Source: an uncultured virus (IMG/VR IMGVR_UViG_3300005662_008418)
Lineage: Duplodnaviria > Heunggongvirae > Uroviricota > Caudoviricetes
IMG/VR virus record: IMGVR_UViG_3300005662_008418
DNA length: 64,000 bases
Direction: 5' to 3' (one strand)
The notes beneath the pieces were generated by a model. The model was not told where the DNA came from. It did not search any database and saw nothing but the letters and a program-made list of their open reading frames with translations. Every line of letters starts with the position of its first letter. The stretch's first letter is position 1. Shown piece after piece: positions 1 to 49,368 of the stretch. Position numbers and translations under genes: made by a program.

Positions 1-2
1 AT

Positions 3-140
3 TCATTGTGTGTTTTCTTCTTCCTTTGGAATCCTGTAGTAACTCATATATAGTTCATGTTCGATGTTATGTCGCTTGAGCGTTTCTTCAAGGTGTAGGA
101 TGTACCAAGACATACGCAGCTTATGGTTAACATTTTTCAT
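3..140 (-). CDS. small hypothetical protein (45 aa, MKNVNHKLRMSWYILHLEE...)
   Basis: Hand-translated ATG..TGA ORF below the ORF-track cutoff. Its stop overlaps a further ATG (ATGA) at the window edge. Confidence 0.5.
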   Translation of the reverse strand: MKNVNHKLRMSWYILHLEETLKRHNIEHELYMSYYRIPKEEENTQ

Positions 141-190
141 ATGTTAACAAATCTGACTTATCAGATATGAAACTAATATTATGCTGCAAA

Positions 191-263
191 TACTCCCTAC
201 AGGATTCGAACCTGCGACTTCAACCGTGTAAAGGTTGCACTCTAGCCGCTGAGTTAAGGGAGT
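191..263 (-). tRNA. tRNA-Val(TAC), no encoded CCA
   Basis: Reverse complement folds as a cloverleaf: acceptor ACTCCCT/AGGGAGT, anticodon arm CAACC-TTTACAC-GGTTG, T-loop GGTTCGAATCC, discriminator A. Confidence 0.95.
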
Positions 264-303
264 GTTTTATTTCTAATTTTTAGTAATGCCAAAATATAAC
301 TAA

Positions 304-393
304 CGGGCAAAGAAGGATTCGAACCCTCGGAAGATTTTAACAACCTTCTGCAATTTAGTAGATTGCCGCCTTAAACCACTCGGCCATTTGCCC
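304..393 (-). tRNA. tRNA-Ser(ACT), class II (long variable arm), A34 anticodon
   Basis: Acceptor GGGCAAA/TTTGCCC, discriminator G, D-arm GCCGAGTGGTTTAAGGC, anticodon arm GCAAT-CTACTAA-ATTGC, long variable arm, T-arm GAGGGTTCGAATCCTTC. Confidence 0.9.
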
Positions 394-423
394 TGAAAAA
401 ATACCATAGTCTCGATGTATAAT

Positions 424-463
424 TGCGTAAATAAGTTTCAGACAATATCGAAACTTTTACGCA
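424..463. other. imperfect hairpin between tRNA genes (processing or termination element?)
   Basis: TGCGTAA(424-430) pairs with TTACGCA(457-463), and AAGTTTC(433-439) pairs with GAAACTT(450-456). Confidence 0.45.
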
Positions 464-468
464 TAAAG

Positions 469-544
469 CACCCGCAGCAGGAGTCGAACCTGCATAAGTC
501 CAGTTACGGTACTACCGCTTAGAAGGCGGAGCCGATATGCGGGC
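469..544 (-). tRNA. D-armless tRNA-like gene, anticodon TCT, long variable arm
   Basis: Acceptor GCCCGCA/TGCGGGT plus G73. About 7 unpaired nt replace the D-arm. Anticodon arm CCGC-CTTCTAA-GCGG, variable stem-loop of about 20 nt, perfect T-arm GCAGG-TTCGACT-CCTGC. Confidence 0.75.
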
Positions 545-569
545 AATGTGTATGCTGATCTGAGTCTTT

Positions 570-578
570 ATTGTAGCA
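570..578 (-). promoter_or_regulatory. possible extended -10 promoter (TGcTACAAT) for the tRNA cluster
   Basis: Matches TGnTAnnnT about 25 nt upstream of the first tRNA gene. No clear -35 element. Confidence 0.3.
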
Positions 579-623
579 AGCACATGACAGTACATGTCGT
601 GGAAATCGAGAGTACTTATTTTT

Positions 624-1064
624 TTAAATTTTACCCTTTTTACTGGCGCTCGCATCTGCCACAAAGTTATCGGGCTTCTTATTCATTGACTCAGAAGTGC
701 TTTTGTTCTTCTTTTCCTCAAAGAGCTTAGCCTCTGCTTCTGATATCTGCCTCCTCATTTCTGGGAGCATGCTTTCTACTGCATCAATGTATTCCCTAAG
801 AGCATCTCTGGTTATCTCGTTAATGCTGGAGCAATCTGCTGCCATTTGCTTTACTTGAATAAAATCTTTTTCAAAATCAGCAAGGCGCTGCTTATCCACA
901 TTAAATCCAGATATCATCTCCCCGATACTCTTGCCTCCAGAAAGGTACTCGAAACTTTTCTTAAGGCCATAAGCACCAAGCCCTATAGCTGCTCCGATCC
1001 CCATAAGGGGAAGGTAGCCTATTGCTTCCTTATTCATGCTATGTTGCTGGTTGCTATTTTTCAT
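624..1064 (-). CDS. hypothetical protein with N-terminal hydrophobic Gly-rich helix and coiled coil
   Basis: ORF track; LPLMGIGAAIGLGAYGL segment followed by charged helices. Confidence 0.7.
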   Translation of the reverse strand: MKNSNQQHSMNKEAIGYLPLMGIGAAIGLGAYGLKKSFEYLSGGKSIGEMISGFNVDKQRLADFEKDFIQVKQMAADCSSINEITRDALREYIDAVESMLPEMRRQISEAEAKLFEEKKNKSTSESMNKKPDNFVADASASKKGKI

Positions 1065-1067
1065 TTT

Positions 1068-1517
1068 TTACCTATAATAGTTAAAATAACCGCCCATCTT
1101 ATCCTGCACTATCGAAGCAAGTTCATCCATATTACTTGCGTAATTGCTATCTCCAGTGAATATCGGACTACTGCTCAATACACTAGAGCAGTCAAAATCG
1201 ATTTTGTCTGCATAAACACTGTTATTGCTATTGTCGCATATTTCTCTCAAATGCTTGGTCACTCCCACATTTATGGATTCAGCTATTTTGGCGGCTGGTA
1301 AATGAGGGTATCTTTGGACAAGTCCATCTAGCATAAAATTTAGTCTTCTGCTTAGGTCTCCATTGTGTATGACAGCAAGCCATTCAAACGGCAGTTCAAC
1401 AAAATCTGCCTTGTCTGGCGCATAAGCTCTACCCGAATCAAATATCCCGCCATCGATATCTCGATCTATTAGGGGCATTGCTTTTTTAAACCAATTATTA
1501 AATTTATTTTTATTCAT
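1068..1517 (-). CDS. hypothetical protein
   Basis: ORF tightly packed between co-oriented genes. Confidence 0.7.
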   Translation of the reverse strand: MNKNKFNNWFKKAMPLIDRDIDGGIFDSGRAYAPDKADFVELPFEWLAVIHNGDLSRRLNFMLDGLVQRYPHLPAAKIAESINVGVTKHLREICDNSNNSVYADKIDFDCSSVLSSSPIFTGDSNYASNMDELASIVQDKMGGYFNYYR

Positions 1518-1857
1518 AAACCAATTTTTGCGCCAGACCCTCTTCTACAAGGAGGGTATTAATACATGCACCATTAGAAAGGACTATACTAGCCAAATAC
1601 CTTCCGTATTTTTCTTTTTTGTCCTTCACGGTGCGAATTACGACATGAGCGCCGTGCTCAATAAGCAAATTTTCCACCCTTTGCTTTGCGGCAACAGCCA
1701 TTGCTCTTTTTTCTATGTTTTTGTCTGTCAGTTCTTCCGTATTTATTTCCATTAGCCTTAGCCTAATCACGGTGAACACGCCAAACCCCAGATCCACATT
1801 AGCGTCTACGGTGTCTCCATCAACTACTCTTAAAATGTTTGCTTTATATTCGTACAT
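1510..1857 (-). CDS. thermonuclease (SNase-like) family protein
   Basis: RVVDGDTVD...RLRLMEINTEE...KYGRYLA...INTLLVEEGLA motifs. Start reassigned to MYEYKA at 1857. Confidence 0.9.
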   Translation of the reverse strand: MYEYKANILRVVDGDTVDANVDLGFGVFTVIRLRLMEINTEELTDKNIEKRAMAVAAKQRVENLLIEHGAHVVIRTVKDKKEKYGRYLASIVLSNGACINTLLVEEGLAQKLVYE

Positions 1858-1948
1858 GCTATTTGTTTCGCCAAAAAATAAATAAAACTTCCGTGTTTTA
1901 TTGTAGGTTATTAAAAAACGGAAACATGAGATTACTAAAATAAAACTC

Positions 1949-2644
1949 ATGAGCACAAATACAACTTTAGCATATAATAATTTTTTTCATCTCTATCATG
2001 ACGCATTCAATGATCAAGATGTAAGTATAGATTTTTTGTTCAGTGATTGTCGAATGAAAAGTATCACCATTAGCATGCCAGCCAAAGATGCTCTTGTTAT
2101 CTATTCTGGGCTGCATTCATATGTCAATTCCATAATGGAAAAAGCATATAAGCATGAAGATGACATCAGAAATATGGTTACTGCGCAGGTCAACAAGCGA
2201 GTAGAGAAAAAAGGCGTCTACGCCCAAATGGGAGCAATGATATATGGAGGTATTGAAGATCCAATCGACACCCAAATATCAAGAGGCGTGGAATTCTATT
2301 CTGGATTGAAAAAAAGCAACTTAGCAATCATAGAAGAAGCAACTAAAGACATAGACGATGGCGATCTATGTGAAATCATATTCAAAGAAAAAGATGCAGA
2401 AATAGATCTTTCAAACGAATTTCACAATTGTCTATCTGTTATGAAAAAACTCATCACCTTAAATAAAGTCGAATTACTTGATGAATGCCTGTCCGATCTA
2501 ATGGATATATCGAAAAATACTCATAAGACAAATAATGGCAATACTTTGTCTTTAATTAACGAGGCTTTTGTTTCCGTATCCAATAAGGTACACAAGCACT
2601 TGGACAACAATACTCCAAATCTCTTTGATGTAGGAGAGGTGTGA
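1949..2644 (+). CDS. hypothetical protein
   Basis: 231-aa ORF after an AT-rich divergent spacer. Confidence 0.7.
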   Translation: MSTNTTLAYNNFFHLYHDAFNDQDVSIDFLFSDCRMKSITISMPAKDALVIYSGLHSYVNSIMEKAYKHEDDIRNMVTAQVNKRVEKKGVYAQMGAMIYGGIEDPIDTQISRGVEFYSGLKKSNLAIIEEATKDIDDGDLCEIIFKEKDAEIDLSNEFHNCLSVMKKLITLNKVELLDECLSDLMDISKNTHKTNNGNTLSLINEAFVSVSNKVHKHLDNNTPNLFDVGEV

Positions 2645-2952
2645 TGAAAAGAAAAGCAAAAGAAATCATAAACGAAATAAATAATAGCGCAGTAAGCAAG
2701 ACTCCCGTTCCAGCAAAGAAAATAATATCGTTTATAACTGAAGCGGAGAATCAGGCTAAAATACTATCCGAAGCAGCAACCATACTGATGGAAAATGGAT
2801 TCGGACCCGATGATGACGATGCGCAATTCGATATCGTTTCCATGCTAAAGTCGGCAATTTCAGACATTCAAGAACTGAGGAACGAAAATAAAAAATTGCA
2901 GGCACAAATCGGAAATTCGAAAATATTTGAGCAAACGCTCAATGAAGGTTGA
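2644..2952 (+). CDS. hypothetical coiled-coil protein
   Basis: Overlaps the upstream stop; GGAG lies upstream. Confidence 0.65.
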   Translation: MKRKAKEIINEINNSAVSKTPVPAKKIISFITEAENQAKILSEAATILMENGFGPDDDDAQFDIVSMLKSAISDIQELRNENKKLQAQIGNSKIFEQTLNEG

Positions 2953-3115
2953 ATACTATCCTGTGAATAAGAAAAAAAAGATACGATGGTGCGAGATTCG
3001 TTTTGTGTTTCGAGGTTTATTCCTATGCTGCTGGGAATTTATAAAATTAGATTGCGTAAAGTATAAAATAGCTTGGTTAGCGATATTGATCCTATATATG
3101 ATAATGATGGCATGA
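2942..3115 (+). CDS. small hypothetical protein with C-terminal hydrophobic helix
   Basis: Fills the gap between neighbours; ATGA overlap with the methyltransferase start. Confidence 0.5.
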   Translation: MKVEYYPVNKKKKIRWCEIRFVFRGLFLCCWEFIKLDCVKYKIAWLAILILYMIMMA

Positions 3116-4461
3116 AAATGAGTAAAAAAGATAAAAAACCAACCGTGGGATCTCTATTCGCTGGCATAGGCGGATTTGATCTTGGATTTGAGAGAAGCGG
3201 ATTTGATATCAGATGGTGCGTTGAAAAGGATAAGCACTGCCAGAAAGTATTAAAACGTAGGTTCCCCAATGCTGTTGTGTACGGAGATATCACTCAGATA
3301 AAAGATGAAGAATTGGAAAAAGTCGATGTGGTATGCGGCGGTTTCCCTTGTCAGGATCTTAGCGTAGCTGGAAAAAGAAAAGGATTAGCAGGAGAAAGAT
3401 CAGGATTATTTTATGAAGCAATACGACTTGTTCGCGCCATCCGACCAGAATTCCTTATACTCGAAAATGTCCCTGGATTGCTTAGCAGCAATAAAGGGCA
3501 CGACTTCGCAGCAGTCATCCGTGAAATGGACCAAGGGTGGCCTTGTGAGGAAATCGGCTGGAGAATTCTTGACAGCAGACACTTCGGAGTCCCCCAGCGA
3601 CGCAAGAGAATCTTCATTGTGGCAAGTTCTAGAACCGGAGGTTCCGAAGCACTACTGGCTATCCCCGAAGGCATGCGAGGGCATATTGAGAAGGGCGAAC
3701 AGGCGCGGAAAAACTCTACCAAAGATACTGCAGAATGCTCTGCAGAAAGTTGTGGATCAGAAAACGCAACCATAGAAAATCCTATTGTCATCGATAGGGC
3801 TGCCTTCAATCAAGGCCAGAATGCTCTGTATCAGCCATACATAAAGTGCTCCAATGAAATGCCATCTTTAGTGGCTCGCGGACCACATGCTGTGGCATTC
3901 CGAAAGTCAAGAAGAGCTCAGAATGCCCAAGACGTGGAAACTTGGGTGAATGACGATACAGCAAATACACTTAATGGATTTGATGTCGGAGATACCAGGA
4001 CGACCCATGCAGTAGTGGCAATACAGGGAAATCTAATTGGGAGGGATGCAGGAGGACCTCAGGGAGTTGGTGTTTCCACTGAGGGAGTTATGTACACCCT
4101 CACCTCTACCGATGTGCATGGCATAGCAACGAATATGCGCAATGAATCAGTCTATTCATTTGATGGCATGAATCAGAAAGCCGCTAAGGAAATTCACCAC
4201 TCCCTGAGAACCGGAAGGGATTCCGGAGATTTTATAGCCATGGAAGAACCAATAGGAAACATGAACATGGTAGTAAGAAGACTTACGCCAAAAGAATGCG
4301 AAAGACTACAGGGATTTGATGATGATTGGACATCGGATCAGTCAGATGCGGCAAGATATAAGCAATTAGGAAATGCAGTAACTGTAAATGTGGCTCAATG
4401 GATAGCGACAAACGCGAAAAACTTTCTGGAAAAGAATGCGATTGCAAAAGACATGCGTTAA
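3112..4461 (+). CDS. dcm: DNA (cytosine-5)-methyltransferase with long variable region
   Basis: Motif I FAGIGG, IV GFPCQ, VI ENV, VIII QRRKR, IX RRLTPKECERLQGF, X YKQLGNAV. Confidence 0.95.
   Translation: MKMSKKDKKPTVGSLFAGIGGFDLGFERSGFDIRWCVEKDKHCQKVLKRRFPNAVVYGDITQIKDEELEKVDVVCGGFPCQDLSVAGKRKGLAGERSGLFYEAIRLVRAIRPEFLILENVPGLLSSNKGHDFAAVIREMDQGWPCEEIGWRILDSRHFGVPQRRKRIFIVASSRTGGSEALLAIPEGMRGHIEKGEQARKNSTKDTAECSAESCGSENATIENPIVIDRAAFNQGQNALYQPYIKCSNEMPSLVARGPHAVAFRKSRRAQNAQDVETWVNDDTANTLNGFDVGDTRTTHAVVAIQGNLIGRDAGGPQGVGVSTEGVMYTLTSTDVHGIATNMRNESVYSFDGMNQKAAKEIHHSLRTGRDSGDFIAMEEPIGNMNMVVRRLTPKECERLQGFDDDWTSDQSDAARYKQLGNAVTVNVAQWIATNAKNFLEKNAIAKDMR
3413..3775 (+). CDS. nested +1-frame ORF resembling the beta-polypeptide of two-component C5-MTases (EcoHK31I-type)
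   Basis: 120-aa ATG ORF inside dcm containing SSLWQVLE..VPKHYWLSPKACEGILRRANRRGKTLP..LQNAL. Confidence 0.65.
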   Translation: MKQYDLFAPSDQNSLYSKMSLDCLAAIKGTTSQQSSVKWTKGGLVRKSAGEFLTADTSESPSDARESSLWQVLEPEVPKHYWLSPKACEGILRRANRRGKTLPKILQNALQKVVDQKTQP

Positions 4462-4469
4462 TAAATAGC

Positions 4470-4685
4470 ATGCCAACTGGTGGAGATGTACTAATGTCAG
4501 ATGGCAACATTTTATGGATGCAATGGATGGATCGTGAAAATCACACTGTGGTGCTGTGTGATAGTGTCGCATCAACCATAAGTGGTCCATGGTCTGTTAA
4601 TGACATTGATTTTGATCCAGTAGATCCGATTGTATTGTTGAGAATGGAAGCATTATATACTGCGTGCATCAGCCATGAAGAATGA
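4470..4685 (+). CDS. hypothetical protein
   Basis: Fills the gap between dcm and the glycosyltransferase; start taken at MPTGG. Confidence 0.55.
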   Translation: MPTGGDVLMSDGNILWMQWMDRENHTVVLCDSVASTISGPWSVNDIDFDPVDPIVLLRMEALYTACISHEE

Positions 4686-5526
4686 TGGAAGGAAAATAAA
4701 CAGTAAAAATTTGAACGATAGTGGCATTGATGCTTCTCGGAGAAATAGTCAATTCTATATTCATTCAAGATATATAGATCATATACTTCCAAATGAATTA
4801 ATCAACATATGCACGGTATCATTTAATCAGAATGAGTGCATACGAACACTCTATGAATCTTTAAAATCCACATGCAAAATGCCATGGAGAATGCATGTGG
4901 TAGACAATGGCTCTGCAGATTCATCGATAGAAGAACTTACTGACTTCTGTAATAAAAACAGAATTAATTTATTAACTAGAAAATGCAGATATACGATGTC
5001 CAGAGCCAGTCAGGCTCACGGTGATGCGTTGGACTTTATTGTAAAATCCATAGGTGATGATAACTCCATACTTTCCATTGTCGACAGTGACTTCTATTTT
5101 GTAAAAATAGGATGGGATTCTATAATAAGAGGATTATTGCCAAAGGGTGGACATATTACGACTATGAGGGGACTAAATGTTCATAAGCCAGCAGCATTCA
5201 TGAGCGTCTTCAGAAAAAGATACGTCAAGAACAAAAGAATATCGTTCATGCCTATAGTGGGCAAAACTGGAAAAGCATTGGAATTTAGAGATGTTGGATA
5301 TGAACTTGGTGAAATACAAATGTCCAAATGGCAAAAACTCATGAATATACCCATGAGTGATTCAACTTATGGCATAACATCCGTAGAAGGATCATGCGAT
5401 ATTTCCATAAATGGAATACCAATCGCAAGTCATCTAAGTAGAGGCAGACTAGTAGGAAGGCGTAGGGAAGTGCATGCTCAATGGGCTGATGAGTGCAGAA
5501 AATACTTAAATAAGACTAAAAAATAG
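4675..5526 (+). CDS. GT2-like (GT-A fold) glycosyltransferase
   Basis: ICTVSFN...HVVDNGSAD, DSD motif; paralogous to 8176 and 8900. Confidence 0.8.
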   Translation: MKNDGRKINSKNLNDSGIDASRRNSQFYIHSRYIDHILPNELINICTVSFNQNECIRTLYESLKSTCKMPWRMHVVDNGSADSSIEELTDFCNKNRINLLTRKCRYTMSRASQAHGDALDFIVKSIGDDNSILSIVDSDFYFVKIGWDSIIRGLLPKGGHITTMRGLNVHKPAAFMSVFRKRYVKNKRISFMPIVGKTGKALEFRDVGYELGEIQMSKWQKLMNIPMSDSTYGITSVEGSCDISINGIPIASHLSRGRLVGRRREVHAQWADECRKYLNKTKK

Positions 5527-6238
5527 GTTGTTTTTTAATCTTATTTCTTAATTCAACCATAGCACCCTTATGACCCTTTCCAAATGGTCCTCGGCTTTTT
5601 GATTGATCCTTACTGCCAAATTTATAGCCACCAAAGTGGCATGCCTTTAAATCAGCCTCCCTGTAGTCCATGACATCATTTGCACTGGTGCCATAATCTT
5701 GCCATGCTTTGTACAGGGCTAGTTGATCGCTGAATTTATGCTTTACAGTTTTAGCATAGTGCATCCATTTATCTAAAAATGCAGCTGTGTTTTCGCGAAC
5801 TTGAGTTCCCACTATCCATGACCTAAATTTCCTTGCCTCTTCCCTCTGTCTAGGCCTGGTTTCTGTTAAGAGCATTTTATTGCTTTCTTTGAATTTCTCT
5901 ATACTTGAAATGATTGATCCATAAGTCATGACATCAGCATCAAGATAGCATATAACATCGCCCTCTTTCGCAAAATCGCATGCTTGTTTCATGGCATTTA
6001 TTTTTGAACAGAATTTATCAGGTTTCGCTGGAGCTGTCACAGGAGTGCAGAGTGAAAAATCTCTCGATATTAGGTCAGCTAACTTTTTTGAGTAGCCTTT
6101 TGGAGCGCCGACTACAGTGTGTATTTTTTTAGCGTCGTGATATTCTACGCTACCGCAAAGATACCAGGCCATGATGGCATACTCTCGATCTTTACTAATA
6201 TTTACGCCTCCGAAACTGGTAACTATGTAAATATTCAA
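5516..6238 (-). CDS. putative nucleotide-sugar glycosyltransferase (GT-A)
   Basis: SKI..M, ICYLDADV (DxD) and SDQLAL motifs. Confidence 0.65.
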   Translation of the reverse strand: MNIYIVTSFGGVNISKDREYAIMAWYLCGSVEYHDAKKIHTVVGAPKGYSKKLADLISRDFSLCTPVTAPAKPDKFCSKINAMKQACDFAKEGDVICYLDADVMTYGSIISSIEKFKESNKMLLTETRPRQREEARKFRSWIVGTQVRENTAAFLDKWMHYAKTVKHKFSDQLALYKAWQDYGTSANDVMDYREADLKACHFGGYKFGSKDQSKSRGPFGKGHKGAMVELRNKIKKQPIF

Positions 6239-33244: not shown

Positions 33245-33709
33245 TTACTTCCACTTGCCTTCTCTTATTTCCTGCAACTCATCGGCCAGAGAATGTCCAC
33301 TACGATCCTTGGCATGATTAATGTACGCAAATGTTCTGCATCTAACTTTGCGTGGCAATTCAAAAATCCCGTAATTAAGCATATGCAATACCGTATCGGG
33401 ATAATTTACAAAAATCTCTTCTCCACTTTTTATAAGAGTTGATGCGTAAAGAATGAAGTTGCCGTCTTCTGATCTTTTGACAAAAGAATTTGCATTATTT
33501 TTATGATTGCAAAAACGGCAAGATTCATCTCGTATGTAAGAATTTGGTTTTTTATCCTGCCAGCAGAAAACTGATATCTTTTCTCCAGAACCAATGTCCC
33601 TAGAAGCAAATATCCCTATCCCATGAAGCCCTGAAGGGCCTATGGCATAGGGATATTTATCTTTTGGGTTTTTAACTTTACTCAGATTACTTGTATTGGT
33701 TTCTGACAC
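33245..33709 (-). CDS. SET-domain protein (putative lysine methyltransferase)
   Basis: SGLHGIGIFASRDIGSGE, RFCNH...N, IKSGEEIFVNY. Confidence 0.85.
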   Translation of the reverse strand: MSETNTSNLSKVKNPKDKYPYAIGPSGLHGIGIFASRDIGSGEKISVFCWQDKKPNSYIRDESCRFCNHKNNANSFVKRSEDGNFILYASTLIKSGEEIFVNYPDTVLHMLNYGIFELPRKVRCRTFAYINHAKDRSGHSLADELQEIREGKWK

Positions 33710-34571
33710 GAATAAGAACCTCTTTTACCCTTCCCTGAGGGACTCCAGGTTCCTTTTCGAATGTTTTCACCGAACCACCTGCTCTCAAATGAGATACAAG
33801 CATTTTAAAAATCTCTTCGTCCCGCTCGTCCTTCATGATGGGAGTGCCGGAGTCAAACTTATCGATAAGCTTGTAAATCTCCGACATGTTGCCCGATGAC
33901 GAATGAGCAAGCGCAGGCTTGTACTTGATGGAAGGCTCCACATCATCCTTGAGGCGGAACCTGGTCTTCCTGTTGTTGCAGCGCTCTTGATCCCTGAAGA
34001 CTTCACGCTTCAGAGAGTTGACGGCAAAGGTCGAAAATTTGATGGCGTAGTATGGATTGAACAAATCCACGCACTTAATGAGGATTTGATTGCAAAGAGA
34101 GCAACGATCCTCCATGTCGTGGTCACCGATGTACTTTTCACGCCATTTGTTTGTAACGGTGAAGATAAGCGGAGTGTTGATCGCAATCAGGGCACTGCGA
34201 ATTTCGAAAAGATCCACAGCGATGTCCGCGATATCGTCGCTGATGCTGGAGGTGACGATGCGGGGATTATTCCCCATAGCCACCATACTCAAGAGCTTTC
34301 GCTTCAGGTTTACAAGAAGTTCAAATGACTCTTGCTCCTGCTTCGATGTCATCACCTGGTTCCCGCTTTCCTTTTCAAAAGACAGGAAAAGCTCGCGACA
34401 GCGGTGAGTTACTGCTGCAATCTTCCAGTCATCCCAATCATTACCCTTGGTATCCACGACTCCAGTGGTCAGGATTGGAATCCGTTTCACAATGTCCTTG
34501 CGAAACATTGCCTTTTCTGCGACTGACATCCTTATCATGCGTCCTCCTGTTATCAGACTTTTTCTTCCCAC
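33687..34571 (-). CDS. sigma-70-family-like RNA polymerase sigma factor
   Basis: Region 2-like RSALIAINTPLI...EDR.S.....LIKCVDLFNP..AIKFSTFA. The region 4-like C-terminus is degenerate. Confidence 0.75.
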   Translation of the reverse strand: MGRKSLITGGRMIRMSVAEKAMFRKDIVKRIPILTTGVVDTKGNDWDDWKIAAVTHRCRELFLSFEKESGNQVMTSKQEQESFELLVNLKRKLLSMVAMGNNPRIVTSSISDDIADIAVDLFEIRSALIAINTPLIFTVTNKWREKYIGDHDMEDRCSLCNQILIKCVDLFNPYYAIKFSTFAVNSLKREVFRDQERCNNRKTRFRLKDDVEPSIKYKPALAHSSSGNMSEIYKLIDKFDSGTPIMKDERDEEIFKMLVSHLRAGGSVKTFEKEPGVPQGRVKEVLIRVRNQYK

Positions 34572-34648: not shown

Positions 34649-35143
34649 TTAGGGGTTTTGCCCCATGTGGATCTTGATGTCCATCTTGTTCGTAAAGTAC
34701 TCTACGAACTCGACTTCTGACGATCTGTCTGCATGCGTGCGCCCACCGCACCATATGTCCCTCATTCCTGTGGAAGCTATGTGGATAAGGCATCTGGAGC
34801 ATGGAACCCCAGTAACGTATATGCGACAATTTGTCAAAGATTTGTGTGCTGAAATGATCGCATTCATTTCAGCGTGTACCATGAATGCATACTTTTCTGG
34901 CCGTAAATTGGGAAATTCTGCATCAGGAGCACCTGCGGGAAATCCGTTATAGCCAGTGCTGATAATGCGATTTTGAGAGTCGACTATGACCGCGCCATGC
35001 TGAGTCTGGGCATCATGCGAGCGGTTTGCTACCAATTCGCATAATTTTAAAAAATAAGAATGCCAGTCAGGTCTTTCATGAGACCTGTCAATGCATTCCA
35101 TTATTCTTTTATCTATTGTGTATTTCTTGTCATCCATGTCCAT
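34649..35143 (-). CDS. dCMP deaminase
   Basis: RPDWHSYF...RSHDAQTQHGAVIV..IISTGYNGFPAG, HAEMNAI, PCSRC. Confidence 0.92.
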   Translation of the reverse strand: MDMDDKKYTIDKRIMECIDRSHERPDWHSYFLKLCELVANRSHDAQTQHGAVIVDSQNRIISTGYNGFPAGAPDAEFPNLRPEKYAFMVHAEMNAIISAHKSLTNCRIYVTGVPCSRCLIHIASTGMRDIWCGGRTHADRSSEVEFVEYFTNKMDIKIHMGQNP

Positions 35144-46326: not shown

Positions 46327-49300
46327 TCACGGGATCAATATTTTACTGCTACTGCTACTGCTAAATGGGTCAGGTCCTCCGTCCAATTGTTGCTGCTGAT
46401 TATTGTTTTGAGGATCTGAGGCATTAGCTCCATTTTCTCCGTTTATTTCTGCATTGTGAACCAGTATTCCATCAACGAAAAACCAATCACTTCTTTCTGT
46501 ATTTATCTTCACTGTAGCCAGTGCCTTATCTATTTTTCTTATATCAAGGTGCATTTCCTCTAGTTTTTCGTTATAGCACCTCTCTGTACCATGCATCATG
46601 GACACACTTCTAAAAAATATTTTATTTTCATTAAAAGCCAAAATAGGATGCTCATACGTTAACCTTAACTTATTGTTCACTAGATAGTACTGTCTTTCAA
46701 AACCAAAGCTTACTGATGTAACCCTGGTTGTGCAGTACTTCCATCCAGATGTATCTGCAGGGACACTGTCTTTGTCAAAAACATTTATAAAATCTGGATC
46801 AATACCAAAATCAACACTAAGTAGTTCATCTCCTGGGACAATCGATTCCACTTTCTTGCTGGAACCGTCAGCTATTAATACCATAGAACCAAAACCAATA
46901 CACTGATTATTGCAGTTTTCTTCGCATGCCTGACTGACGATATTGCATTCACAATCAAAACCACCCGATCTTACTATCTGATTAATAGTCACGGGAACGC
47001 CGCCACTGCAGCAAGTAGAAGTTATAACTTCCGTGCATCCAAAATCTAGCTGCAATGTGCAAAAATCAATTGCAGACATGAATATGGGATTCGGACATGT
47101 ATATCCAAAACATATCTGGCAATATGCAGTTATGTCCACCTCCTGTCCTGGAGGTATTTCATCGCATGACCCTAGCCCGCAATTAGGTATTCCCGCACAC
47201 GGATTGACAAACAACGAGGAAGAGGAAGAAGACGAGGAAGAACTAACTCCTTTTGATGATGATGAAGAAGAAGGCGCAGATGAACTTGAACTTGATTTAA
47301 AGGAAGATGAAGATGAAGAAGATGAAGAAGGATATTCATCGCATGGGCATAAAGAGCAGGAACACCCGATGCATTGAGACGATGCAGACCATACTGCAGT
47401 GCCAAAGTTTGAGCAGTCATCAAAAACTATTACTCTGAGCTTCTTGTGCCACGGATCATTAACATCGTTGCTGTAAGAATCGGATGGTATGTTAAAGCAA
47501 GTTATGAAAGATCCAGTGCCTTCATCGTAACACCATTCCACTGGAGAAAATGCAGCGTCAAAAGGCACGAAGTCTTCTGGCAATCTCGAGTGAACGCAAC
47601 CACTATCTACGATCAGAGCGCTTACTGGGCAGTTTATCTGCACGCCAACATCTGATGAACTAGAAAAATATGGATTGAAGCTAGAAAGACCGTCATTGCC
47701 AAATCGATTAGTCAAAGCCTCGTTGACGTAGAATACATTGCTATAATAACCAGTATTTGACCTCAAGTGGGAATCAAATCCAGACATATCAACGGCGTTG
47801 GCTCCAAATACGGGAGATCTTACGGCATTTATCATCTGAGATACTGATGTGAAGCCTGAATCCACATCATGCTCTGGTGGATACCATGTTCTCAATACGT
47901 AAAGACGATCAGGAGCTACTGATCCCTGATTGGTCTTGAACCTTAAGCAAACTCTTCCCGTGGAAGATCCAGGAGGACATTGAAGAGCGTTATTTATAGA
48001 AAGGACATAGTCATGCACCGTGATGGGTCCAGATCCAGCCCTAGTCTGGCTGAATGCGCAAATTGATCTTGATGGCCCTGGAGGTGGTGGAGGATCGTCC
48101 CCTCCGCAGAAAACATCATCGCAAGAACAATCCATGCAATTAAGAGCAACAGACCAACTCATGGAAGTTGCTCCAATTGAGCAGTTAGGAAATATTATTA
48201 ATCTTATTTTGTAGCGCCAGCCATCATCTGGATCGGAAGATGTTGAGAACATGTTGTAGTTCACTGGGATGCATAGTTTGGCTACATTGTTCTGCTTCTT
48301 CCATGGAGATGGAGGGAATTGGGTAGCAGTATTGATGCATGATGAATCAGCAATAGGATTGACGGGACATTCCACGCCCACTCCATTTACATCCATTCTA
48401 ACAACCTGGCTGGATATATTGGTATAGACAGATGGATTGAGATAGCCATATGGATTTACTGGACTGCCGCCTCCATAAGGAATTCCATCCTGACCTATTT
48501 CGCTAAAACCAAAAAGTTTTGATCTTAAAATTGATGTGTTATCTGCAGACAACCTATCTATGGTTGGCAGTACAACAACCCTGTGCTTGCCAACTAAGGA
48601 TGAAAAAGAAAGGCATAAATATCCAAATTCAGATATGGAAGAACATGTAAGTGCGTTCTCAACATCGATTATGACTTCGACTGGATTGTCAGCCCACATC
48701 TGATCCACTTCATTGCCATTAAGAGCGTAGTTGAATGTGCATGCGTCATTTTCTCCTGCGCAATTGACATTGGGGATGTTTACTGAAAGAGATTTGTGAA
48801 TATAGCTTAACTTGTTTAGTATTTTCAAAAAAGAATTAGCCCAAGCCCCCTGAGCTCTGGCATAAGATAGCATGCTTGGTGTTGCGTCTGAACCGAATAC
48901 AGGAGGAATTGCTATTGTAGTCAAATCACTAGTACTTACATTATCTCCTACAAGTTGATTTATATTAAGATAATAGCCATCGGTAGGATCGTATTTTCCC
49001 GTATTGTAAGTGACTTTTTGAAAAAAACCATTTGGTTCTATGGCATCAGCGGAGCAGCCAGAGAGAATTATTCTTTCATATTCTCCACTTGGATGACCAG
49101 CTAGAAACTGCATCATAGCAGAATTTAGTATCTCGGAAGCAGTATATATGCTTGATGGTGTGTCAAATATCAACCCAGAAACATCCACAGGATTAAATGG
49201 AATTGTTCGTGAATATGCGTCAGATACGGCTCGCTGCCTAAGCAGTATCGCGTCCTGTATATGCTTCATGATGTAATCAATTCCCAGCATACCACCGGAA

Positions 49301-49368
49301 ACTGGGTCAAATATTTCTCCAGAAGTAAAATTAAGAGAATACTGACTGACATCAAACGGATTACGCAA
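46327..49368 (-). CDS. 1013-aa paralog of the 3471-aa protein, with Ser linker and C-terminal Hint domain (TTG start)
   Basis: N-terminus RNPFD..Y...FD....LG...I...DAI..RQ.AV is shared with the paralog. Hint motifs CIGFGSMVLIADG...LTYEHP...ILVHN. Confidence 0.8.
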   Translation of the reverse strand: MRNPFDVSQYSLNFTSGEIFDPVSGGMLGIDYIMKHIQDAILLRQRAVSDAYSRTIPFNPVDVSGLIFDTPSSIYTASEILNSAMMQFLAGHPSGEYERIILSGCSADAIEPNGFFQKVTYNTGKYDPTDGYYLNINQLVGDNVSTSDLTTIAIPPVFGSDATPSMLSYARAQGAWANSFLKILNKLSYIHKSLSVNIPNVNCAGENDACTFNYALNGNEVDQMWADNPVEVIIDVENALTCSSISEFGYLCLSFSSLVGKHRVVVLPTIDRLSADNTSILRSKLFGFSEIGQDGIPYGGGSPVNPYGYLNPSVYTNISSQVVRMDVNGVGVECPVNPIADSSCINTATQFPPSPWKKQNNVAKLCIPVNYNMFSTSSDPDDGWRYKIRLIIFPNCSIGATSMSWSVALNCMDCSCDDVFCGGDDPPPPPGPSRSICAFSQTRAGSGPITVHDYVLSINNALQCPPGSSTGRVCLRFKTNQGSVAPDRLYVLRTWYPPEHDVDSGFTSVSQMINAVRSPVFGANAVDMSGFDSHLRSNTGYYSNVFYVNEALTNRFGNDGLSSFNPYFSSSSDVGVQINCPVSALIVDSGCVHSRLPEDFVPFDAAFSPVEWCYDEGTGSFITCFNIPSDSYSNDVNDPWHKKLRVIVFDDCSNFGTAVWSASSQCIGCSCSLCPCDEYPSSSSSSSSSFKSSSSSSAPSSSSSSKGVSSSSSSSSSSLFVNPCAGIPNCGLGSCDEIPPGQEVDITAYCQICFGYTCPNPIFMSAIDFCTLQLDFGCTEVITSTCCSGGVPVTINQIVRSGGFDCECNIVSQACEENCNNQCIGFGSMVLIADGSSKKVESIVPGDELLSVDFGIDPDFINVFDKDSVPADTSGWKYCTTRVTSVSFGFERQYYLVNNKLRLTYEHPILAFNENKIFFRSVSMMHGTERCYNEKLEEMHLDIRKIDKALATVKINTERSDWFFVDGILVHNAEINGENGANASDPQNNNQQQQLDGGPDPFSSSSSSKILIP
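46453..46902 (-). other. Hint (intein-like) domain ending in H-N followed by Ala
   Basis: Block A CIGFGSMVLI, block B TYEH, C-terminal FFVDGILVHN|A. Confidence 0.9.

Follow-up and report, generated by a model that had tools for sequence, protein, structure and literature searches.

A tRNA-Ser with the anticodon ACU in a freshwater phage: a probable AGU reader of a type that recurs in viral DNA

Can a phage make use of a tRNA-Ser that carries adenosine at the wobble position, in a codon box which serine shares with arginine? The question is raised by a gene with the anticodon ACU on a stretch of viral DNA of 64,000 nucleotides (IMG/VR record IMGVR_UViG_3300005662_008418), the whole of which is called the window in the following. 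Reviews and a preprint of 2026 treat A34 anticodons in split boxes as essentially absent from life and raise the question of their toxicity. The preprint (bioRxiv 10.64898/2026.05.15.725136) describes split-box A34 tRNAs as sporadic in bacterial genomes and takes ACU as absent from bacteria; the word 'phage' does not occur in the portion of its text that was accessible. The answer matters for genome annotation, and also for models of codon adaptation in phages, as these are mostly built on the standard wobble rules.

ARAGORN called a tRNA-Ser with the anticodon act on the minus strand (Table 1), and the Rfam tRNA model RF00005 matched the gene end to end over model positions 1-71 with 55.1 bits and an E-value of 1.9e-10, the gathering score being 29. 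The minimum free energy fold is a full cloverleaf with an acceptor stem of 7 bp, a D stem of 3 bp, an anticodon stem of 5 bp, a T arm and a variable arm consisting of a 7-bp stem and a 5-nt loop. Its energy was -29.6 kcal/mol (z = -2.60), and 3 of 200 shuffled sequences folded as well. The discriminator, the base after the acceptor stem, is a G (G73), and CCA is not encoded. The initial annotation had described an intact class II tRNA-Ser with G73 and the loop CU-ACU-AA, and ARAGORN, the Rfam model and the fold confirmed this; its anticodon identity was correct, only the position it gave, 358-360, was one base off, as the plus strand reads AGT at 357-359. SerRS recognizes its tRNAs by the long variable arm and G73, and serine identity does not rest on the tRNA anticodon. 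Since the anticodon is not an identity element, the SerRS of the host would be expected to charge the phage tRNA through its long variable arm and G73. The loop contains U36-A37-A38, reported as the requirement for t6A37 (PMC13276492, in the part available). The structural features of the phage tRNA-Ser(ACU) group are present in the window gene, namely the anticodon ACU, a 7-nt loop, U33, a purine at position 37 and a class II body, and by every feature that a sequence allows to test it classifies as a bacterial-type class II tRNA-Ser. A scan of positions 1-1100 for a promoter-like site or a terminator on the minus strand found none.

Table 1. Location of the features discussed in the text. 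Positions refer to the window unless a locus handle (L) precedes them.
Feature	Position	Strand	Evidence or remark
tRNA-Val(UAC)	191..263	-	ARAGORN; Rfam 65.6 bits; 40 nt downstream of tRNA-Ser, same orientation
tRNA-Ser(ACU), class II, long variable arm, G73, CCA not encoded	304..393	-	ARAGORN, Rfam RF00005, cloverleaf MFE fold
Anticodon ACU (A34 = 359, C35 = 358, U36 = 357)	357..359	-	Sequence; loop CUACUAA, U33, U36-A37-A38
Atypical tRNA-like gene, loop CUUCUAA (UCU)	469..544	-	Covariance model R1, 84.2 bits; 75 nt upstream of tRNA-Ser, same orientation
Giant ORF, 3,468 aa	13400-23806	-	No Pfam or PHROG match
TilS-like protein, 253 aa	30759-31520	-	Catalytic N-domain, TIGR02432 163.8 bits (cut-off 93.6)
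SET-domain protein	33245-33709	-	Near the dCMP-deaminase-like protein
Sigma-factor-like protein	33687-34571	-	Near the dCMP-deaminase-like protein
dCMP-deaminase-like protein	34649-35143	-	PDB 2w4l, E 5e-19
Giant ORF, 3,471 aa	35910-46325	-	No Pfam or PHROG match
1,013-aa protein adjoining giant ORFs	46327-49368		Weak match to jumbo-phage virion proteins
Giant ORF, 3,017 aa	49369-58422	-	No Pfam or PHROG match
Giant ORF, 1,239 aa	60153-63872	-	No Pfam or PHROG match
R1 family member	L616:87-165		Covariance model R1
R1 family member	L459:457-533		Covariance model R1
R1 family member	L543:4827-4903	-	Covariance model R1
R1 family member	L411:8821-8897		Covariance model R1
R1 family member	L419:4310-4398		Covariance model R1
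R1 family member	L622:401-476		Covariance model R1
R1 family member	L623:398-474		Covariance model R1
R1 family member	L624:394-470		Covariance model R1
R1 family member	L625:401-479		Covariance model R1
R1 family member	L626:395-471		Covariance model R1

The gene lies on viral DNA, flanked by a tRNA-Val and a tRNA-like gene. The window has a GC content of 41% and encodes several glycosyltransferases, a C5 DNA methylase and an SNF2-type helicase. PHROG matches were obtained for an endonuclease, a helicase, a sigma factor and a virion structural protein, and tblastn revealed weak, distant matches to virion proteins of Erwinia jumbo phages. A contig 210,960 nt long carries the methylase in unaltered form. 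The source is read as an uncultivated freshwater phage, probably of jumbo size with a genome of at least 211 kb. Protein searches for relatives of the two genes adjoining the tRNAs yielded one locus with 31% identity, which was without tRNAs, and a tblastn comparison of 28 window proteins with 150 viral loci identified no related phage. The TilS-like protein of the window also matched Pfam ATP_bind_3 (E 3e-45), and similar proteins were present in two loci with tRNA arrays (L386, L518). ATA accounts for 615 of the 1,118 Ile codons in 13 large window ORFs, and the window contains no tRNA-Ile(CAU). The protein points to a second route by which the phage may tune decoding at the wobble position.

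A sequencing or assembly error at A34 was considered. Positions 1-5000 of the window were present at least partly in 18 of the 19 runs listed, from 12 studies of freshwater metagenomes, and in 11 runs at least half of the words sampled from this region were present. Among the contigs of four runs from four studies, matched at 80% likeness, no variant letter was observed at 355-361; the run data were compared as assembled contigs, so rare variants could be missed. The anticodon site is spanned by a contig of a separate study (run X10, record 5, window positions 327-545), and a JGI metagenome contig of 6,833 nt (L249) is 100% identical to window positions 1-5987 and also has ACT. The latter reaches 846 bases past the window start and adds no tRNA there. 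Because the independent contig and the identical JGI contig carry the same anticodon, an error is very unlikely, to a degree that we regard its chance as negligible. The initial annotation had considered a true GCT hidden by misassembly, and the contigs have ACT throughout. An RNA-library run (X12) had no contig over positions 281-400, which is neutral as to expression.

The frequency of the anticodon was determined with sequence patterns. An ACT-specific pattern, composed of the loop CUACUAA, class II spacing and a standard T loop, matched at least 120 stretches in a scan of IMG/VR. ARAGORN assigned tRNA-Ser(act) to 67 of 80 loci among the matches listed, the loop itself being required by the pattern. 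Together with the window copy, the viral ACU genes listed formed 34 clusters at 85% identity with a median pairwise identity of 0.60, and they had many different anticodon stems with compensatory changes. The closest relative of the window gene among them was found in locus L064 (77%). The anticodon arm of the window gene itself, searched with N34, was absent from IMG/VR and occurred once in the JGI metagenomes, in the identical copy. An R34 version of the pattern provided a sample unselected for the anticodon base 34. The 80 IMG/VR loci listed comprised 62 Ser(GCU), 9 Ser(ACU), 6 uncalled loci and 3 other tRNAs, thus about 1 in 8 AGY-type tRNA-Ser genes among the viral loci listed was ACU. 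With the same pattern, the 80 loci listed from GTDB, sampled at one genome per prokaryotic species, comprised 79 GCU, no ACU and one uncalled locus, and in 401 Patescibacteria genomes the 105 matches were GCU without exception. The difference between viral and cellular DNA was significant (Fisher p = 0.0009 for GTDB, 0.0002 for Patescibacteria and 7e-6 pooled); the frequencies on both sides derive from a single motif pattern and from the first 80 loci listed. The ACU type thus recurs in viral DNA, where it is both diverse and enriched. These controls bear out the statement of the initial annotation that bacteria use GCU for AGY, while the rarity that it implied for ACU was overstated for phages, given the share in the viral sample and its presence in deposited phage genomes; it had also considered that homologues in related phages might all have GCT, and the search of other phage DNA recovered the ACT anticodon.

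At least 11 deposited genomes of cultivated phages contain a tRNA-Ser(ACU). These phages were reached via the look-alikes in IMG/VR, not via the window sequence. ARAGORN called ACU in Salmonella phage Munch, Erwinia phage Hallingskeid and Rhizobium phage RHph_TM2_3B. The copy of Munch is 100% identical in the Salmonella phages 7t3, SE_PL and PHA46 and in Klebsiella phage fENko-Kae01, the Erwinia phage copy is 97.8% identical to this shared gene, and four sister phages of RHph_TM2_3B have identical copies. One GenBank record of a Rhizobium phage, MN988523.1, already bears the note 'tRNA-Ser(act)'. The tRNA sets recovered from Munch, Hallingskeid and RHph_TM2_3B include Ser(act) and Ser(tga) and no Ser(gct), the Munch set leaving out a tRNA match of class I length at 280882-280957, and Ser(act) is the sole AGY-box tRNA in these three complete genomes. 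The best full-length blastn matches of the window tRNA among cultivated phages were Ser(GCU) genes with 77-80% identity, in Microbacterium phage Pumpernickel, Synechococcus phage S-SKS1 and Komagataeibacter phage phiKM1. A literature search for tRNA-Ser(ACU) in phages, in which bracketed forms like 'Ser(act)' were not matchable, found none, and the accessible portion of the main text of Morgado and Vicente 2019 (PMC6409571) has no discussion of ACU or of AGU-Ser.

For codon use, 150 viral loci were compared, each taken with a maximum of 10 kb of flanking DNA per side. Of these, 68 had ACT and 74 GCT only; in 4 of the 68 ACT loci a GCT gene was also present within 10 kb. The fraction AGT/(AGT+AGC) in 67 scored ACT loci ranged from 0.58 to 0.83 (10th-90th percentile) with a median of 0.71, at a GC content of 0.31-0.43, and all these loci prefer AGT over AGC. 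In 71 GCT-only loci the AGT fraction was 0.22-0.85 and the GC content reached 0.58 (Mann-Whitney p = 0.009 and 0.019 for ACT against GCT-only loci). This difference is mostly the absence of ACT from GC-rich contigs, which may stem from mutation bias just as from selection. The AGT fraction is 0.80-0.84 at a GC content of 0.34-0.41 in Munch, Hallingskeid and RHph_TM2_3B, and the hosts of these three phages are considerably more GC-rich. The window itself has 465 AGT and 378 AGC codons, a fraction of 0.55, which is below the 10th percentile of the ACT loci, and its commonest Ser codon is TCT. With such a weak AGT preference and TCT as commonest Ser codon, a reader of AGU would bring the phage of the window little advantage. 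No tRNA-Ser(GCU) was found in the 64-kb window and the 846 extra bases, out of a genome of at least 211 kb.

ACU and GCU are one transition apart, and ACU may have arisen by AT-biased G to A mutation as a near-neutral variant without benefit, or the gene may be inactive. The confinement of the ACT genes to AT-rich contigs and the weak AGT preference of the window agree with such an origin. However, the seven other split boxes are exposed to this mutation pressure as well. Among the tRNAs neighbouring the sampled genes in the same viral sample, these boxes together had 3 A34 against 169 G34, the serine box 10 A34 against 68 G34 (p = 0.0007), and by these counts Ser ACU is the outstanding split-box A34 tRNA of viral DNA. 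In a complete N34 scan of one anticodon-arm context, all 15 class II Ser genes (8 distinct sequences) had A34 and none G34. The retention of ACU across very divergent backbones with compensatory stem changes, the near-identity of the Salmonella, Klebsiella and Erwinia phage copies (five of them identical) and the intact remainder of the window tRNA with its conserved tertiary positions also argue against drift, which we consider unlikely. Other A34 tRNAs were seen in viral arrays (L376-L561), each in 1-5 loci: Ser(aga), Thr(agt), Leu(aag), Asp(atc), Tyr(ata), Cys(aca), Phe(aaa), Ile(aat), Pro(agg), Ala(agc) and Val(aac).

Experiments in E. coli bear on the decoding. On an orthogonal tRNA body, an ACU anticodon read and reassigned AGU, reading of AGC was below detection, and U3 was discriminated from C3 by at least 95:5 (PMC11066159, in the sections available). 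Reverse-transcription sequencing detected no inosine in the ACU anticodon, and TadA was described as very specific for the anticodon loop of tRNA-Arg2 (PMC11066159, same sections). According to the accessible part of the preprint, overexpression of Ser-tRNA(ACU) bettered growth parameters of E. coli (10.64898/2026.05.15.725136). As the ACT loci prefer AGT, and as ACU in E. coli was unmodified with AGC reading undetected, the phage tRNA is probably functional and a dedicated reader of AGU by Watson-Crick pairing with an unmodified A34. In the host of this phage A34 would stay unmodified and pair with the U of AGU; AGC would be read little, and AGA and AGG to no relevant extent. The tRNA, if expressed, would supplement the tRNA-Ser(GCU) of the host, which pairs directly with AGC but needs G-U wobble for AGU, and this may raise the fitness of a phage whose genes favour AGT. 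The initial annotation had proposed a supply of AGT decoding, which from codon use and the E. coli data on ACU is the best-supported reading.

Bacteria convert A34 of tRNA-Arg(ACG) into inosine. The same change in the phage tRNA, by the TadA of the host or by an enzyme of the phage, would extend its reading to AGU, AGC and some AGA. A34 in split boxes is not always left alone, as engineered Phe-tRNA(AAA) was found to contain inosine in E. coli, and His-tRNA(AUG) is cited for the same change (10.64898/2026.05.15.725136, accessible part). The window also encodes a protein of the cytidine/dCMP deaminase fold, the only one there with this fold; a comparison with solved structures matched it to dCMP deaminases and, at E-values up to 0.01, to no tRNA adenosine deaminase. 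The loop of TadA substrates has G36, the phage tRNA has U36, and the E. coli data on ACU and on TadA cited above speak against the modification. Of the 894 Arg codons in the window, 427 are AGA, more than of any other Arg codon, and 11 of 13 conserved alignment columns at AGA codons of the methylase are Arg, none is Ser. Misreading of AGA as Ser would therefore be costly, and we consider inosine at position 34 improbable. The long ORFs of the window are open under table 11, and with the Arg columns of the methylase this indicates that the standard genetic code applies. An altered reading frame or a code with AGA as Ser was rejected, since the AGA codons align with conserved Arg.

The initial annotation had also suggested that the phage tRNA escapes host anticodon nucleases aimed at GCU. 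A G34A exchange might let the tRNA escape a nuclease that cuts tRNA-Ser(GCU), or act as its decoy, and the enrichment of the ACU type in viruses would fit. No nuclease aimed at tRNA-Ser(GCU) is known to us, nor is one named in the sources consulted. A change at any of the other six loop positions would leave decoding as it is, while a change of the wobble base alters it, and the association of ACU carriage with AGT preference is not predicted by an escape. No defence or anti-defence gene was identified adjoining the tRNA cluster. It has been proposed that phage tRNAs evade host tRNases through changes in the anticodon loop, however tRNA-Ser(gct) is described as untargeted in the system studied there (eLife 2023, PMC10264068, sections available). 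The suggestion thus found no support, and we give nuclease escape or decoy little credence compared with a dedicated AGU reader.

The tRNA-like gene upstream of the tRNA-Ser has a perfect 7-bp acceptor stem and a T arm and no ordinary D arm. It was not called by ARAGORN with default settings, and the only Rfam match was tRNA-Sec with 25.1 bits, below the gathering score. Look-alikes of this element were first met by chance in IMG/VR loci. With a stricter structural descriptor, four distinct examples were obtained in 2.78 Mb against none in shuffled sequence, and a covariance model (R1) was built from these four. Ten elements scored 66-89 bits with R1 and an eleventh 42 bits, the best ordinary tRNA 43 bits; the Rfam tRNA model gave 29.9-32.9 bits for four members. 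All members have 'UAU' after the acceptor, followed by a 3-nt strand that pairs with the 3 nt just 3' of the anticodon hairpin and thereby encloses the hairpin, and a GG-containing, D-loop-like stretch precedes a normal T arm. Wherever the alignment has letters, the extra helix is paired, with compensatory changes in 2 of its 3 pairs; these counts come from an alignment fitted to the model, in which 4 of the 11 sequences had been selected for that pairing. The anticodons found are UCU, ACG and CCU for Arg and UAU and GAU for Ile, with no other types so far.

A blastn search with the L411 member of this family retrieved 50 records of cultivated phages, mostly Streptomyces phages, besides Microbacterium, Rhodococcus, Bacteroides crAss-like and Mesorhizobium phages. 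In 28 of the 30 matches listed of these 50, no feature was annotated at the element; that of Rhodococcus phage Trina is labelled 'tRNA-OTHER'. The window element itself had no blastn match in cultivated phages, and no description of such a rearranged tRNA-like family was found in the literature. From their conserved architecture, the elements are read as a probable family of rearranged tRNAs or tRNA mimics that is conserved in phage tRNA arrays and apparently undescribed so far. This family may be a more novel lead than the tRNA-Ser of the window. In the window element, the strain variants 497 A>G and 498 G>T were observed in contigs of runs X9, X10 and X12, located in the unpaired tail. In Microbacterium phage Zooman, a stretch of 221 nt between two tRNA-Arg genes (L622:552-772) matched model positions 1-367 of RNaseP_bact_a with 53 bits, below the gathering score of 100, and may represent a reduced RNase P-like RNA in a phage tRNA array.

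A wider proposal is more tentative, and we put it forward as a possibility that we rather doubt: that phages as a class keep an AGU-only Ser tRNA with unmodified A34 by selection, and that the phage of the window decodes both halves of the AGN box. If true, one split-box A34 tRNA would be common in nature, against the universal avoidance taught in textbooks, and the window phage would supply a reader for AGU, the A34 tRNA-Ser, as well as one for AGA, the rearranged UCU tRNA. As natural Ser(ACU) genes are present in cultivated phages with laboratory hosts, the question of toxicity and decoding is directly testable.

The closest known counterparts of the window tRNA are the Ser(ACU) genes of cultivated phages. 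They share with it the class II body, the loop CUACUAA, the location among tRNA genes and the AT-rich, AGT-preferring DNA, and differ by a low sequence identity to the window tRNA and by the stronger AGT preference of their genomes. The standard tRNA-Ser(GCU) has the class II architecture and the codon box in common with the window tRNA, but it carries G34 and reads AGC and AGU, whereas A34 is expected to read AGU only. An unmodified A34 occurs naturally in Mycoplasma tRNA-Thr(AGU) and in yeast mitochondrial tRNA-Arg(ACG), both in AT-rich genetic systems. These tRNAs serve four-fold boxes in which promiscuous reading is harmless, whereas the box of ACU is split with Arg. The TadA substrate tRNA-Arg(ACG) has A34-C35 like the window tRNA, and G36 instead of its U36. 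The engineered ACU tRNAs of E. coli have the same anticodon, which as a Ser tRNA in excess was harmless or beneficial, and are laboratory constructs on other bodies, as far as described in the accessible parts of the two sources (PMC11066159; 10.64898/2026.05.15.725136). The tRNA of the window is one more of the phage Ser(ACU) genes already present in public records, one of which is annotated as such, and the wider pattern, in which phages commonly keep a split-box A34 tRNA that cells avoid, appears to be under-described.
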